Assembly: GCA_964450975.1 (NCBI GenBank)
Contig: CAYVFO010000001.1
Coordinates: 1-59,940, forward strand
Source: an uncultured Elusimicrobia bacterium
GTDB taxonomy: Bacteria > Elusimicrobiota > Elusimicrobia > UBA1565 > UBA9628
Reading direction: 5' to 3'
DNA: 59,940 bases
Program-made: the position numbers and the translations under genes
The notes under the pieces: model-generated
What the model saw: only the letters and a program-made list of their open reading frames with translations
Database searches by the model: none
Told to the model about the DNA's origin: nothing
Shown: in pieces, positions 2,166 through 19,204 of the stretch
Numbering within the stretch: the first letter of the stretch is position 1
How the letters are laid out: each line of letters opens with the position of its first letter

Positions 2166-3305
2166 ATGCCCAAGCTCGACGAGGTCAAGGCTAAGCTCGG
2201 CGCCCTGAAAGGGGTGGCGGAGCTTTTCCTCGGTCCCAAGGACGTCGTCGGGATCGATGTCGGCTCCTACTCCGTGAAGGTCGTCCTCTTCAAAGTGGAG
2301 GCCGGCCAGGCGCATCTCAAGTCCTGGGGCTATCTGCCGCTCACCGGCAAGGTGGACGCGGGACCCGACGAGAAGAAGGTCGCGGTCATCAACGCGCTGC
2401 GCGCCTGGTTCATCGAGAAGGGCGTCAAGATCAAGGAAGCGGCGACCTCCCTCTCGGGCAACGCGGTCATCGTGCGCTACGTGAAGTTCCCGCGCCTGAC
2501 CAAGGGCGAGCTGTCTCAGACGCTCGCGACCGAGGCCGAGCCCTTCATCCCTTTCGACATCAACGAGGTCCAGCTCGGCTTCCACATCCTGGCCGAGATC
2601 GTCGAGGACGGCCAGAAGACGATGGAGACCGTCCTGGTCGCCGCGAAGAAGGAGCTCATCGGGCAGCGCCTCGAGATCCTCGAGGGCGCCGGCCTCTCCC
2701 CCACGATCATCGACGTCGACAGCTTCGCGCTCGAGAACGTCCACGAGAAGCTGTCCGGCAAGGAAGGCGGCGGCGCCGCCCTCTACCTTAATATCGGCCA
2801 CATGGTCACCAATCTCTCGATCATCGAGAACGGAGTGACGCGCGTCGTCCGCGACGTGTTCATCTCCGGCAACACGATGACGAAGGCGATCATCAAGGCG
2901 TTCCAGTGCGACGCCGCCAAGGCCGAGGAGCTCAAGAAGACGCGCGGCGTCTTCGTCGACCCGGCCGAGAAGGAAAAGGCGCTCGCCGACGGCGACCGCG
3001 ACGGCCTCGGCGTGTCGCAGGCCGTCGGCCAGGTCGCGCGCGACCTCGTCGCCGAGGTCCACCGCTCCGTCGACTTCTACCTCTCGCAGGGCCCGGACCG
3101 CTCGATCGGCCGCATCCTGCTCTCGGGCGGCAGCGCCCGCGTCAAGAATCTCGACAAGCATCTCGCGCAGGAGCTCAAGGTTCCCGTGACGGTGCTCAAT
3201 CCGTTCGCGTTCGCCAAAGGCGGCGACCAGGTTCCCGAGGAGCTCGCCTCGTCCTTCGGAGTCGCCGTGGGTCTGGCCCTGCGCCAGAACCGGGACTGGG
3301 AATAG
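2166..3305 (+). CDS. pilM: type IV pilus assembly protein PilM (actin-like ATPase fold)
   Basis: 379 aa. The N-terminus (VVGIDVGSYSVKVV) and overall layout are typical of PilM. It is followed by pilN/O/P/Q. Confidence 0.9.
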   Translation: MPKLDEVKAKLGALKGVAELFLGPKDVVGIDVGSYSVKVVLFKVEAGQAHLKSWGYLPLTGKVDAGPDEKKVAVINALRAWFIEKGVKIKEAATSLSGNAVIVRYVKFPRLTKGELSQTLATEAEPFIPFDINEVQLGFHILAEIVEDGQKTMETVLVAAKKELIGQRLEILEGAGLSPTIIDVDSFALENVHEKLSGKEGGGAALYLNIGHMVTNLSIIENGVTRVVRDVFISGNTMTKAIIKAFQCDAAKAEELKKTRGVFVDPAEKEKALADGDRDGLGVSQAVGQVARDLVAEVHRSVDFYLSQGPDRSIGRILLSGGSARVKNLDKHLAQELKVPVTVLNPFAFAKGGDQVPEELASSFGVAVGLALRQNRDWE

Positions 3306-3308
3306 ACC

Positions 3309-3860
3309 GTGGCCATCAAGGTCAACCTCGTCCCCCCGGAGCTGCTCGGAAAAGCGAAGCAGCGCCAGCTCATGCTGCAGGCCGGCGTCATCGGCGGCAT
3401 CCTGCTCATCGTGCTCGCCGGCGTCTCCTTCGGCCACTGGTTCGGCAAGCACCGCCTCGAGCAGCAGCTGGCGTACGACGAGGCCGAGCTGCAGCGCCTC
3501 GACGCGATCGTCAAGCAGGTCGAGGAGCTCGAGAAGGCCGCGGCCGCCGTGCGCGCGCGCCTCGGCGTCATCGAGGATCTCCTGCTCGGCCGGACGTACT
3601 ACCCCGTCTTCATGTCGGACTTCGCGCGCACCGTCCCGGGCGGCATCAAGGTCAACTCGATGCAGACCGCCGGCGCGGGCGCCGGCACCGGCTCGATCAA
3701 GCTCACGATCGCCGCCGTCGCGAACTCGAACGAGGACATCGCCGCCTGGATCAAAACGATGGAGAAGAACCCCCGGTTCGTCAACATCGAGCTCGGCGCG
3801 GTCTCGAACTCGAACAATCTGTACGATTTCGGCATGACCGCGAACTACACCAACAAATAA
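3309..3860 (+). CDS. pilN: type IV pilus assembly protein PilN
   Basis: 183 aa. INLVPPE-like N-terminus (KVNLVPPELL), one TM helix, then a coiled coil. GTG start 3 nt after the pilM stop. Confidence 0.85.
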   Translation: MAIKVNLVPPELLGKAKQRQLMLQAGVIGGILLIVLAGVSFGHWFGKHRLEQQLAYDEAELQRLDAIVKQVEELEKAAAAVRARLGVIEDLLLGRTYYPVFMSDFARTVPGGIKVNSMQTAGAGAGTGSIKLTIAAVANSNEDIAAWIKTMEKNPRFVNIELGAVSNSNNLYDFGMTANYTNK

Positions 3861-3861
3861 C

Positions 3862-16775: not shown

Positions 16776-16778
16776 ACC

Positions 16779-18710
16779 ATGTGCGGCATCTGCGGCGTCG
16801 TTTACGGCGACGGGCGCGAGCCCGATAAGGGCGTCCTCAAGCGCGCCAACGACCTCATCGCCCATCGCGGCCCCGACGACGAGGGCTCGCTGATCGACGC
16901 CCCCGCGGCGCTCGCGATGCGCCGGCTGGCGATCATCGACCTAAACACCGGCCATCAGCCGATCTCCTACGCGGCCGAGCGGTACTGGATCGTCTTCAAC
17001 GGCGAGATCTACAACTACCAGGATCTGCGGGCGGGACTCCTGTCGCGCGGCCATTCGCTCAAGACGAAGTCGGACACCGAGGCGATCCTGGCTCTCTACC
17101 AGGAGAAGGGCGAGCGCTGCGTCGACGACCTGCGCGGGATGTTCGCGTTCGCGATCTGGGACCGGAAGGAGAAATCGCTCTTCATCGCGCGCGACCGCAT
17201 CGGCAAGAAGCCTCTCGTCTACGCCCATCGCCCGGACGGGACCTTGCTGTTCGGCTCCGAGATCCGCTGCCTGTTCGGCCTCGATCCCAAGCTGCCGCGC
17301 GAGATCGACCCCGTCGCCGTCGACATGTTCCTCTCGCTTCAGTACATCCCGTCGCCGCGCGCGATCTACCGCGAGGTCCGCAAGCTCCCGCCCGGCCACT
17401 CGATGACGTGGAAGGCCGGCAAGCTCGACGTCAGGCGCTACTGGGACCTGCCGCTCGGCAAGCCGCCGATCACGACCGACTTCGAGGAGGCCAAGCGCCT
17501 CCTGCGCGACACCCTCACGGAGTCGACGCGCCTGCGCATGATCTCCGACGTGCCGCTCGGCGCGTTCCTCTCCGGGGGCGTGGACTCATCGATCATCGTC
17601 GCGCTGATGGCCCGGCTCTCGACGAAGCCCGTGAAGACGTTCTCGATCGGCTTCGACGAGGAGCGCTTCTCCGAGACGCGCTACGCGCGCATGGTCGCGG
17701 ACCGGTACAAGACCGAGCACACCGAGTTCGTCGTGAAGCCCGAGATGGCCGACGTGCTTCCGAAGCTCGCCTGGCACTACGGCGAGCCCTACGCCGACGC
17801 CTCCGCTCTGCCGACCTATTACGTCTCGCGCGAGACGCGCAAGTTCGTGACCGTCGCCTTGAACGGCGACGGCGGCGACGAGAACTTCGCCGGCTACGTC
17901 CGCTACTTCGCGATGAAGGCCGCGCGCCTGGCCGACGTCCTGCCCGGACCGGCGCTCTCGCTGCTGCGCGCGGGCGCCGAGCTGCTGCCCGAGCACGACG
18001 CGCCGCTCGGCAACGTCTGGCGCGCCAAGCGCTTCCTGCGCTCGGTGCTGTCGAACGACCTGCCGGGGCGCCATCTCAAGATGGTCGGCTTCTTCGCCGA
18101 GGACGACAAGCCCGGCCTCTACAGCGACGACTTCAAGAAGAGGCTCGGCGGCGGGATCCACGAGGCCGCGCGCTACATGAGCGCCGCGTTCGCCGCGACC
18201 GAAGGCGAGGACTTCGTCAACCGCATGCTCGCGGTCGACTTCAAGACGTACCTGCCCGAGTGCCTCATGGCGAAGGTCGACATCGCCTCGATGGCGTGCT
18301 CGCTCGAGGGACGTTCGCCCCTTCTCGATCACGTGTTCGTCGAAACGGCCTTCCGCATGCCCGGCGACTGGAAGCTCAAGGGCCTTCGCGGCCACAAGCA
18401 CGTGATGAAGGAGGCGTTCAAGGACCTCCTGCCCCCGGAGATCCTCACGCGCTCCAAGATGGGCTTCGGCATCCCGCTCGGCGCGTGGTTCCGCGGCGCG
18501 CTCAAGGGCTTCTGGGAGGACAACGTCCTCTCCTCGCGCGCGCTCTCGCGCGGCTACTTCCGCGAGGAGGCCCTGCGCGGCCTCTGGGCCGAGCACCAGA
18601 GCGGCAAGCGCGACCACGGCTACCGCCTGTGGGCGCTCCTCATGCTCGAGCTGTTCCACCGCCACGCCGACGAGGCTCTGGCCGCCCCCGAGCCCGCCGC
18701 CCGCGCTTGA
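16779..18710 (+). CDS. asnB: asparagine synthase (glutamine-hydrolysing) family amidotransferase
   Basis: 643 aa. N-terminal nucleophile MCGI and the SGGVDSS PP-loop motif are present. Confidence 0.9.
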   Translation: MCGICGVVYGDGREPDKGVLKRANDLIAHRGPDDEGSLIDAPAALAMRRLAIIDLNTGHQPISYAAERYWIVFNGEIYNYQDLRAGLLSRGHSLKTKSDTEAILALYQEKGERCVDDLRGMFAFAIWDRKEKSLFIARDRIGKKPLVYAHRPDGTLLFGSEIRCLFGLDPKLPREIDPVAVDMFLSLQYIPSPRAIYREVRKLPPGHSMTWKAGKLDVRRYWDLPLGKPPITTDFEEAKRLLRDTLTESTRLRMISDVPLGAFLSGGVDSSIIVALMARLSTKPVKTFSIGFDEERFSETRYARMVADRYKTEHTEFVVKPEMADVLPKLAWHYGEPYADASALPTYYVSRETRKFVTVALNGDGGDENFAGYVRYFAMKAARLADVLPGPALSLLRAGAELLPEHDAPLGNVWRAKRFLRSVLSNDLPGRHLKMVGFFAEDDKPGLYSDDFKKRLGGGIHEAARYMSAAFAATEGEDFVNRMLAVDFKTYLPECLMAKVDIASMACSLEGRSPLLDHVFVETAFRMPGDWKLKGLRGHKHVMKEAFKDLLPPEILTRSKMGFGIPLGAWFRGALKGFWEDNVLSSRALSRGYFREEALRGLWAEHQSGKRDHGYRLWALLMLELFHRHADEALAAPEPAARA

Positions 18711-19204
18711 AGCGGCCGCGGCTGATCGCGATCGCCGTCCTCGCGCTCGGAATGTTCCTCCTGCGCGACAAGGTGCGCGGCGTGTTCTTCTTCCTCGACG
18801 GTATCGACCTGATCATCCACGAGGCGGGCCATCCGATTCTCGGGATCTTCGGCTGGCGCTGGCTCATGATGGCGGGCGGGACGATCTTTCAGCTCGCCTG
18901 GCCGCTGGCGTTCGTCCGCCACTTCTGGAAGAACGGTCAGCCCAAGTCGGCCTACGCTTGCGTGCTGTGGTTCGGCCAGAACTTCCTGCACATCGGCCGC
19001 TACGCGGCCGACGCCCGCGCCCAGGAGCTGCCGCTGGTCGGCGGCGGGGAGCACGACTGGACCTATCTGCTCGACTGCTGGGGCCTGCTCGCGCGCGACA
19101 TCGGCGTCGGGATGACCTTCGATTTCCTCGGTTGCGCGATCATCGCGTGGTCGCTCGTCGCGCTCTGGGCCGAAGCGCGGCGTCCCGATCCGTCCTTGGT
19201 CTGA
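18707..19204 (+). CDS. small polytopic membrane protein with HExxH (HEAGH) motif
   Basis: About 165 aa. TTG start at 18707 overlaps the asnB stop; an alternative ATG lies at 18752. HEAGH is encoded at 18818-18832. About 4 TM helices and high GC3. Confidence 0.45.
   Translation: MKRPRLIAIAVLALGMFLLRDKVRGVFFFLDGIDLIIHEAGHPILGIFGWRWLMMAGGTIFQLAWPLAFVRHFWKNGQPKSAYACVLWFGQNFLHIGRYAADARAQELPLVGGGEHDWTYLLDCWGLLARDIGVGMTFDFLGCAIIAWSLVALWAEARRPDPSLV

Follow-up and report, generated by a model that had tools for sequence, protein, structure and literature searches.

In the window analysed here, a stretch of 59,940 nucleotides (contig CAYVFO010000001.1) from an uncultured Elusimicrobia bacterium, the type IV pilus (T4P) alignment genes pilMNOPQ run directly into a set of glycoconjugate-assembly genes, and the pil and glycan genes together form one densely packed co-directional block behind one conserved promoter. 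The step that carries the most weight is the first junction between the two parts, where the secretin gene pilQ is followed by the gene for a membrane enzyme with a Wzy_C domain and a C-terminal tail that resembles tetratricopeptide repeats (TPRs), an order that recurs in nearly all of the related loci that could be evaluated. We tentatively favour, at a little less than an even chance, the reading that the block is a conserved Elusimicrobiota supra-operon in which pilMNOPQ is joined to periplasmic glycoconjugate assembly, with a pilin or a protein of the pilus machine as the acceptor. The comparative data all come from metagenome-assembled genomes (MAGs) and metagenomes.

Fourteen open reading frames (ORFs), all on the + strand, fill positions 2166–19204, from pilM through a small membrane protein with an HExxH motif, one fewer than the 15 genes counted in an earlier note on this DNA. 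The genes downstream of pilQ are called g6 to g14 in order, GT stands for glycosyltransferase, and the assignments are as follows.

2166–3305, + strand: pilM, actin-like cytoplasmic T4P alignment protein (Pfam PilM_2, E 9.6e-55)
3309–3860, + strand: pilN (Pfam PilN, E 2.4e-9)
3862–4407, + strand: pilO (Pfam PilO, E 3.9e-24)
4404–4901, + strand: gene that occupies the place of pilP (Pfam PilP match at E 0.0065, under the cut-off)
4916–7009, + strand: pilQ secretin with AMIN, N0/STN, Secretin_N and Secretin domains (Pfam Secretin, E 4.8e-53); the ORF is open from 4898
7017–8426, + strand: g6, Wzy_C membrane enzyme with a C-terminal TPR-like tail (Pfam Wzy_C, E 5e-11)
8423–10342, + strand: g7, YfhO-like GT-C glycosyltransferase (AlphaFold2 (AF2) model and Foldseek; relatives match PF09586)
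10339–12177, + strand: g8, second YfhO-like GT-C and paralog of g7 (34% identity to g7, alignment A2)
12174–13154, + strand: g9, stand-alone MprF-flippase-like (UPF0104/PplT) membrane protein (LPG_synthase_TM, E 1.6e-39; TIGR00374)
13151–14173, + strand: g10, Trm112-like zinc ribbon and class I S-adenosylmethionine (SAM) methyltransferase (Pfam Trm112p, Methyltransf_11)
14170–15300, + strand: g11, GT4 cytoplasmic glycosyltransferase of GT-B fold (Glyco_trans_1_4, E 1.4e-34; Glyco_transf_4)
15297–16775, + strand: g12, candidate flippase of the MOP family, Wzx/MurJ-like (weak Polysacc_synt and MatE matches; about 9 transmembrane segments)
16779–18710, + strand: g13, AsnB-type glutamine amidotransferase that starts MC... 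(Asn_synthase, E 1.5e-100)
18707–19204, + strand: g14, small membrane protein with HEAGH (from the translation; no family match)

PilM, PilN, PilO and PilQ, recognized by Pfam, stand in the order expected of a type IVa pilus system, and PilO and PilN (the latter at its N-terminus) have one transmembrane segment each. These four identities had been given in the earlier note and were borne out, but its PilP rests on a weak match; the protein in that position has a hydrophobic N-terminus with no lipobox Cys, and the position is kept in all relatives. If pilQ is opened at TTG 4898, the junctions from pilM to g14 measure +3, +1, −4, −4, +7, −4 (six times), +3 and −4 nucleotides (nt), and the coordinates, the gaps of 3, 1, 7 and 3 nt and the 4-nt overlaps that had been listed before are reproduced exactly from the ORFs. 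The accompanying statement that every junction is an overlap or a gap of 7 nt or less applies to each junction that was listed, but it is probably not strictly true for pilP/pilQ, which was left off that list, because the likelier start of pilQ is ATG 4916, giving +14 nt instead of the −4 nt of the TTG; relatives align from residue 7 and their pilP–pilQ gap is 13 nt.

The conservation of the pilQ–Wzy_C junction was followed from both of its sides. Anchoring a scan on g6, with one genome per species, gave 30 Elusimicrobiota loci, 29 of them with upstream sequence, and pilM-N-O-P-Q lies directly ahead of g6 in 29/29. Between pilQ and g6 the median gap is 6 nt, with extremes of −1 and 56, the g6–g7 junction is −11 or −4 and the g8–g9 junction is −4 in 24/24. 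Down to about 45% identity, the order g7, g8, g9, g11 holds wherever a locus extends that far, and g10 keeps its place in all but one; g12 is missing or inverted in several of these loci, and g14 was found only in L006. Taken alone this result could reflect general synteny, because the divergent genes for a haloacid dehalogenase (HAD) hydrolase and a nucleotidyltransferase are also kept in that clade.

A metagenome scan anchored on PilM reached further, with 80 loci at 40–85% PilM identity, some of which overlap the genome loci (L046 is the contig of L010), and 31 of them, with PilM 45–85% identical, have at least 1 kb past the pilQ stop and could be evaluated. A Wzy_C gene stands immediately after pilQ in 29 of the 31 (28 by tblastn and L092 by Pfam). 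One further locus, L081, has an ORF for a 217-amino-acid TPR protein after pilQ and then a Wzy_C/TPR gene, which brings the loci with Wzy_C in first or second place to 30/31; the exception, L056, has a g7-like GT-C gene directly after pilQ. Nine post-pilQ ORFs of 500–670 amino acids were tested against Pfam and all nine are Wzy_C proteins, five of them with TPR, or six if the sub-cut-off match in L092 is counted. The loci are labelled as Elusimicrobia and include the lineage RIFOXYA12_FULL_49_49, with 49% GC. The earlier note had proposed asking whether the order from pilQ through Wzy_C to YfhO is conserved in relatives, and for the step from pilQ to Wzy_C the answer from both scans is that it is. 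Its larger picture of a whole glycan gene set as the partner of the pil genes fared less evenly, since Wzy_C, with or without TPR, is the universal component but the GT-C pair, the methyltransferase, Wzx, AsnB and the HExxH protein vary.

The surroundings of the junction change from lineage to lineage. Upstream there are either the divergent HAD and nucleotidyltransferase genes or pilC-pilin-pilD, and the downstream content varies too: in the group with 45–52% PilM identity the common layout is (pilC-pilin-pilD-)pilMNOPQ, Wzy_C/TPR and a second Wzy_C, followed by a variable assortment of GT4, PplT and GT2 genes, and the GT-C pair is confined to the clade of the window together with L032, L036 and L079. 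No other observation argues as strongly for selection on the adjacency of pilQ and Wzy_C as the survival of the junction amid rearrangement of both flanks. Two of these deep loci, with identities to the window of 47% for PilM, 34–46% for PilQ, 30–32% for g7, 31–39% for g8 and 29–33% for g9, show how the flanks are built. L032 reads pilC, pilin, pilD, pilM, pilN, pilO, pilP-like, pilQ, Wzy_C, Wzy_C/TPR, YfhO-like and second GT-C, then LPG_synthase_TM, AsnB, GT9, GT4, GT2, GT2 and WecA-like, and L036 reads T2SSE ATPase, pilC, pilin (GFTLIEL), pilD, pilMNOPQ, Wzy_C/TPR, GT-C, YfhO and GT2, then LPG_synthase_TM, GT4, MurJ/MatE, GT4, PMT_2 and GT2. In L032, L036, L079 and others (PilM 47–60%, g7 30–37%) the genes pilB/T, pilC, a GFTLIEL pilin and pilD belong to the same co-directional cluster, and because they do, we regard the pil genes of the block as part of a genuine type IVa pilus system. 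The pilin gene of the deep lineages is thus in the cluster, about 6 kb away; it is not clustered in the window or its close clade, and a prepilin motif scan found no nearby pilin in the g6-anchored loci.

The pilin ORFs of the deep lineages (940–1362 in L032, 1934–2410 in L036, and others in L070, L074, L079, L090–L104 and L112) share a GFTLIEL N-terminus, a C-terminus of the form ...VNC(T/S)H.D.K..W(S/T)(S/T)Y with Ser/Thr second-last in most, and a variable segment rich in Ser, Thr, Ala and Pro past the N-terminal helix. As possible glycosylation sites, the Ser and Thr residues are only suggestive. Three further loci deserve mention. The complete MAG CP096137.1 (L015) carries the block at 5245–21162 with truncated matches and gaps of 120–220 nt, which look like long-read frameshift errors. 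In L052 a g7-like GT-C gene on the − strand (642–2492) lies divergently upstream of pilM, in place of the HAD/nucleotidyltransferase pair. A MAG labelled 'Clostridia bacterium' (L102, JABUBN010000018.1) has a PilM that falls in a 90%-identity cluster, all of its other named members being Elusimicrobiota, and the Elusimicrobiota pil–Wzy_C layout, and that bin is probably mislabelled or chimeric.

The enzyme at the junction, g6, is itself a conserved lineage-specific gene, since its 199 homologs at E <= 1e-5 all come from Elusimicrobia/Elusimicrobiota MAGs, with 52–66% identity among the matches listed. Its AF2 model has a predicted local distance difference test (pLDDT) score of 86 and a WaaL-like 12-transmembrane fold, the best match in the Protein Data Bank (PDB) by Foldseek being WaaL itself (7tpg_B; E 7.6e-4, TM-score 0.47/0.52, 16% identity) and the next FtsW. 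An alignment of 17 deep sequences has R225, P240, G243, G245 and G247 invariant and H269 in 15/17. R225 and H269 correspond to Arg and His positions common to WaaL and PglL, with residue roles as given in PMC3643930, and g6 with its WaaL/PglL-type fold and retained Arg and His looks like an active enzyme. The combination of Wzy_C with this Arg and His, which PglL and TfpO also have, does not discriminate between them and WaaL, which shares it. The C-terminus is modelled as a stack of helical hairpins, about 100 residues long, which the positive-inside rule would place in the periplasm. In calling g6 a Wzy_C/TPR protein the earlier note had the Wzy_C domain right by Pfam, but the TPR escapes Pfam in g6 and is apparent from the structure model and from distant orthologs only. 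Sequence searches of PDB chains with g7 and with the g6 profile were uninformative, returning a ribosomal protein and, for the g6 tail, designed helical-repeat proteins.

The two genes that follow, g7 and g8, match each other in tblastn, and g8 occupies the same position in relatives. The AF2 model of g7 (pLDDT 82.6, predicted TM-score 0.85) has about 9–10 transmembrane segments, a periplasmic C-terminal beta-sandwich and a terminal transmembrane helix, and its Foldseek matches are AftD (E 1.2e-9), ALG12, ArnT and STT3, over a range from 1.2e-9 to 3e-2. The hallmarks of the GT-C fold, an acidic residue in the first outer loop and a periplasmic domain, are both present in g7; the acidic residue is D37, invariant in 26 sequences including g8, in a first loop around which the g7 model is of low confidence. 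The description of the pair as YfhO-like GT-C enzymes, made in the earlier note, is supported by the fold and by the relatives, but neither g7 nor g8 matches PF09586 itself; 7 of the 26 aligned family members do so weakly, with a best E of 3.5e-6. Among the relatives is P0269, an Elusimicrobia MAG protein from the contig of L032 that is 30% identical to g7 and annotated as YfhO family, and nearly all of its homologs carry PF09586. The g7/g8 profile matched 33,429 cluster representatives, 3,026 of them at E <= 1e-30, and full-length proteins like g7 grade without a break to identities of about 24%. Other Elusimicrobia YfhO-like paralogs, P0276 and P0288, lie away from pil genes, and P0265 is at a contig edge.

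For the remaining genes, Pfam and the translation agree with the names first given to them (Wzy_C, flippase-like, methyltransferase, GT4, AsnB and HExxH, the second as LPG_synthase_TM and the last as HEAGH), with Wzx only weakly matched. NCBIfam gave no family for g6, g7, g8, g12 or g14, and its matches to g11 are all below the cut-offs. An XrtA/PEP-CTERM exopolysaccharide locus was considered and rejected: TIGR03108 scores 618 vs 817 bits for g13, TIGR03088 scores 128 vs 409 bits for the GT4, and no exosortase was found among the window genes scanned.

Three elements outside the coding sequences frame the block.

2027–2055, + strand: sigma-70-like promoter TTGACA-N17-TATAAA (read from the sequence)
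2075–2123, + strand: leader hairpin GCGCCGA...UCGGCGC followed by a U-run (covariation and covariance model)
19205–19450, unstranded: imperfect palindrome between the convergent genes g14 and marC (folding energy)

The promoter, pointed out before, is present and conserved in relatives, its elements TTGACA and AACCTGTTATAAAT being invariant or nearly so in 15–24 related loci; our promoter scan missed it, as the scan demands T at position 6 of the −10 hexamer. About 20 nt past the predicted transcription start and about 40 nt ahead of pilM comes the leader hairpin, in which, over 24 sequences, pairing holds in 93.3% of cells and compensatory changes are seen at six pairs, a degree of pairing that 0/500 shuffles reach and that compares with 39–67% in slid controls. 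The covariance model built from it (R1) matches only upstream of pilM, on the + strand, in independent metagenome loci of the same clade (E 5e-22 to about 3e-3), and found no other copy in the window and none in the deep lineages. The leader is specific to the clade in which pilM opens the block. It belongs to no Rfam family; Rfam is empty for the window, with nothing convincing in the pilM leader. In form it resembles an intrinsic terminator, which makes it a candidate for a short RNA or for an attenuator that acts on the whole block. Tandem second copies of the leader occur in L017 (4799–4890 and 4947–5055), L045 (1429–1503) and L047 (9748–9817), and a terminator-like hairpin with a T-run on the minus strand at 1960–1978, just upstream of the start of the divergent HAD gene (1938), mirrors the leader and may be chance.

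Inside the block, the promoter/terminator scan gave no convincing terminator, and a promoter-like site at 10304–10333 (9/12) was not taken as evidence, as it falls within the conserved C-terminal coding sequence of g7. The strong hairpin element that had been noted after 19204 is real: the palindrome is about 240 nt long, with perfect 17-nt arms at 19323–19356 nested in arms of 20–30 nt and a minimum free energy of −120 kcal/mol (z = −8.5), and it marks the 3′ end of the block, probably as a terminator acting in both directions or as a repeat element. The operon signals are a single invariant or near-invariant promoter, the lack of a convincing terminator within the block and a strong hairpin that occurs at the 3′ end alone; they would fit co-transcription of the block.

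The window around the block is rich in related genes. Upstream of pilM are the divergent HAD hydrolase and sugar nucleotidyltransferase, and downstream lies one further feature.

21235–30783, + strand: second glycan operon, densely packed (Pfam, NCBIfam)

It encodes a DegT aminotransferase, four GT2 enzymes, an epimerase/dehydratase, an Agl23-like membrane protein and an 860-amino-acid Wzy_C+TPR protein with an IctB-family hit. Three of the GT2s resemble polyprenyl- or dolichyl-phosphate hexose transferases (AglJ, dolichyl-P hexose transferase and PpgS), and the operon is a plausible source of polyprenyl-phosphate-sugar donors for g7 and g8. The DegT gene and the first GT2 come after the pil–glycan block in some relatives. 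Base composition was also followed along the window, where GC per kb runs from 60 to 77%. Between 7001 and 13000 GC climbs to 74–77% and AT-skew falls to about −0.35 at the first membrane-protein genes, where GC at third codon positions (GC3) stays at 0.92–0.97. Horizontal transfer was considered as an explanation for the change near 7000 and rejected, as GC3 is uniform at 0.90–0.97 over the block genes; the shift fits the Ala-, Leu-, Gly- and Arg-rich composition of polytopic proteins and is for that reason not ascribed to foreign DNA.

On the reading that we favour, the block would work as a short pathway. The GT4 enzyme g11 would make a lipid-linked sugar at the cytoplasmic face, to be modified by g10, the methyltransferase, and in some lineages also by g13, the AsnB-type amidotransferase, and to be flipped to the periplasmic face by g9, the Wzx-like g12 or both. 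There g7 and g8 would add sugars from polyprenyl-phosphate donors, probably supplied by the GT2 enzymes of the adjacent operon, and g6, with its TPR-like tail predicted to be periplasmic, would pass the glycan to a pilin or to some other protein that the pilus machine handles, as a functional counterpart of TfpO/PglL. Such an acceptor is favoured because the junction is conserved, because the deep lineages have pilins in the cluster and because a TPR tail would bind protein, and also because pilin glycosylation is known both of the Wzy_C type (TfpO/PglL) and of the GT-C type (TfpW). Published genes for O-oligosaccharyltransferases (O-OTases) are typically linked to pilin genes, as for 21/31 pglL homologs (PMC3643930), and TfpW provides the precedent for pilin glycosylation by a GT-C enzyme (bioRxiv 10.1101/2020.04.19.049825). 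Fusions are known in which a UPF0104/PplT domain is joined to a GT-B, O-antigen-ligase or SAM-methyltransferase domain (bioRxiv 10.1101/2022.03.11.483950), UPF0104/PplT genes adjoin STT3/PMT-like GT-C and AglD-type GT2 genes where archaea glycosylate proteins (PMC5898192), and the gpgSDF triad makes, and probably flips, GlcN-phosphatidylglycerol (PMC12713373).

Several observations weigh against it. Neither the window nor the close-clade loci yielded a pilin, pilB, pilC, pilD or pilT gene in motif scans, so any target pilin must be encoded elsewhere; for the window, where no prepilin motif and no PilB/PilT Walker box was found, this agrees with the earlier note, which had listed no pilA, pilB, pilC or pilT. 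In Proteobacteria aroK and aroB often follow closely after pilQ with no known functional link, so that adjacency to pilQ alone is weak evidence, and the premise from which the earlier note started, that pilMNOPQ is a self-contained operon, becomes doubtful. Spacing alone is likewise weak evidence, because tight junctions are the norm in this genome: of the window's 32 other junctions between genes on the same strand, 22 likewise do not exceed 7 nt (in a GC3-guided gene model with heuristic starts). The chance of 13 tight junctions is then 0.69^13, or about 0.008, and the pil-to-glycan run is the longest in the window, the next-longest having nine genes; it is long, yet in keeping with the compact style of the genome. 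For g6, sequence and fold fit an O-OTase, a WaaL ligase and a polymerase alike. Neither the PglL_A nor the PglL_B signature was found in it, Pfam at E <= 0.01 giving Wzy_C only, although TfpO likewise has no PglL_A/PglL_B motifs (PMC3643930). The block contains no initiating phosphoglycosyltransferase. Lastly, the second Wzy_C/TPR gene and the many glycan genes of the window, like the GT9 (of the lipopolysaccharide (LPS)-core type) and WecA-like genes of L032, fit a general envelope-glycan region.

These points lead to the most serious rival, which we consider quite possible, if clearly short of an even prospect, namely that the genes form an envelope glycoconjugate module that does not act on the pilus directly. 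In that case g6 would be an O-antigen ligase or polymerase, g7 and g8 would decorate LPS, a lipoglycan or a glycolipid, and the position after pilQ would be due to co-regulated outer-envelope functions or to inherited gene order. The best structural matches agree with this, WaaL for g6 being an O-antigen ligase and AftD for g7 a lipoglycan/arabinan GT-C, and g9-g10-g11 resemble the synthase, modifier and flippase of the gpgSDF glycolipid triad (PMC12713373); YfhO itself is reported to glycosylate teichoic acids and not proteins (PMC5836110). The GT9, GT4, GT2 and WecA-like genes in the same run of L032, and in the window the nucleotidyltransferase and HAD genes upstream and the second glycan operon downstream, speak for it as well, as do the generic tight packing and pilQ-aroK-aroB as a case of functionally unexplained synteny. 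Neutral synteny, however, poorly explains how the step from pilQ to Wzy_C survived rearrangement of the flanks down to about 45% PilM identity, and a TPR tail has no obvious role on a lipid-A ligase. Several loci, moreover, have two tandem Wzy_C genes after pilQ and the window has yet another, so that g6 need not be the housekeeping ligase. It is improbable, in our estimation, that g6 is mainly a pilus assembly factor, with a TPR tail that works like a pilotin (PilF/PilW/Tgl) and a Wzy_C domain that serves as an anchor or local envelope modifier. TPR pilotins for PilQ are established in Proteobacteria and Myxococcus, the sole universally kept neighbour of pilQ is the Wzy_C/TPR protein, L081 has its separate TPR ORF between pilQ and Wzy_C, and no PilF/PilW-like pilotin gene was seen in the window or the clusters examined. 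The retained catalytic-type Arg and His and the G-x-G-x-G loop nevertheless argue for an active enzyme, the g6 tail is short, and the known pilotins are lipoproteins of the outer membrane and not polytopic proteins of the inner one.

We give very little credence to the idea that PilMNOPQ of the block is a trans-envelope conduit that exports the glycoconjugate made downstream through the secretin, and is not, or not only, a pilus machine. The fusion of the genes itself and the want of pilA, pilB, pilC and pilT in the window are all that speaks for it, whereas deep relatives carry pilB/T, pilC, pilin and pilD directly upstream of pilMNOPQ–Wzy_C, the module has no export genes of the Wza/Wzc or ABC type, and we know of no secretin that exports polysaccharide. 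A stronger version of pilus-coupled glycosylation, which we find unlikely but worth stating, is that the Wzy_C/TPR enzyme is an integral T4P accessory, docked through its periplasmic TPR tail on PilQ, PilP or the pilin and glycosylating pilus proteins during assembly, with a glycan that, in the lineage of the window, would be made by a hitherto undescribed set of two YfhO-like GT-C enzymes, a PplT-type flippase, a methyltransferase and a GT4, and with the leader as an attenuator that would govern expression.

Among known systems, the loci of TfpO (PilO) of P. aeruginosa 1244 and of the PglL/ComP-type pilin O-OTases (PMC3643930) are among the closest to pilus-coupled glycosylation by the block, as they too have a polytopic Wzy_C enzyme with the Arg and His kept inside a T4P cluster, and in the deep Elusimicrobiota relatives that cluster includes the pilin gene. 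They differ in that g6 sits after pilQ and not beside pilA, has a TPR-like tail and no PglL_A or PglL_B, is a predicted enzyme, and comes with GT-C, flippase-like, methyltransferase and GT4 genes of its own, whereas the known enzymes borrow O-antigen or pgl glycans. TfpW, the arabinosyltransferase of P. aeruginosa group IV, is like g7 and g8 a large pilus-linked GT-C, and they would similarly use polyprenyl-phosphate sugars in the periplasm; compared with TfpW by its description, g7 and g8 belong to the YfhO-like branch, are two paralogs, and lie downstream of pilQ with Wzy_C. WaaL (PDB 7tpg) shares the Wzy_C domain and is the best structural match of g6, though at the low identity and a TM-score of about 0.5, and g6 adds the TPR-like tail and does not lie beside lipid A-core genes, no lipid A-core or heptosyltransferase gene having been found among the scanned window genes (about 590–37865). 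Downstream in the related loci, a GT9 gene was seen in L032 only.

The YfhO/CsbB/GtcA systems of Firmicutes (PMC5836110, PMC8035078) likewise combine a YfhO-like GT-C and a flippase with nearby GT2 polyprenyl-phosphate sugar synthases. The host of the block is a diderm, however, and the acceptor cannot be teichoic acid; the block is pilus-linked, its GT2s belong to the neighbouring operon (in L036 such genes are part of the block itself), and its flippase-like protein is the UPF0104/PplT protein g9, with no GtrA-type gene seen. In gpgSDF/HexSDF (PMC12713373) a GT4 synthase, a modifier and a UPF0104 flippase-like protein stand side by side, as do g11, g10 and g9, but g10 is a methyltransferase and not a deacetylase, the order is reversed, the triad is embedded among GT-C and flippase/amidotransferase genes, and g11 scores 73.5 against the 480-bit cut-off for the GlcNAc-phosphatidylglycerol synthase NF053787, well outside that family. 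In the literature searched, on Elusimicrobia pili and on pilQ with an O-antigen ligase, we came upon no account of the arrangement seen here.

Pilin glycosylation is known from a few Proteobacteria, in which the transferase gene adjoins the pilin gene and the glycans are borrowed from other pathways. The Elusimicrobiota block differs from the known pilus-linked glycosylation loci in its position after pilQ, in the Wzy_C/TPR architecture and in its conservation across several lineages of the phylum, and further in its private set of YfhO-like GT-C, PplT, methyltransferase and GT4 genes. A mostly uncultured phylum keeps a Wzy_C/TPR enzyme at the secretin end of its pilus operon, and one lineage has added a glycan set of its own, with two YfhO-like GT-Cs, a PplT flippase-like protein, a methyltransferase and a GT4. 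The block also yields a new conserved leader RNA element and is a system in which the function of UPF0104/PplT proteins that stand alone could be tested. If the link between the two parts is not functional, it would be a clean case of deep synteny between unrelated envelope functions. If it is functional, it would assign a concrete substrate to these GT-C and PplT families, which are now orphans, add a new phylum to those with protein O-glycosylation and suggest a physical coupling of glycosylation to the pilus machine, and should the TPR-docked accessory prove true, pilin glycosylation would have a third, machine-coupled route beside TfpO/PglL and TfpW.

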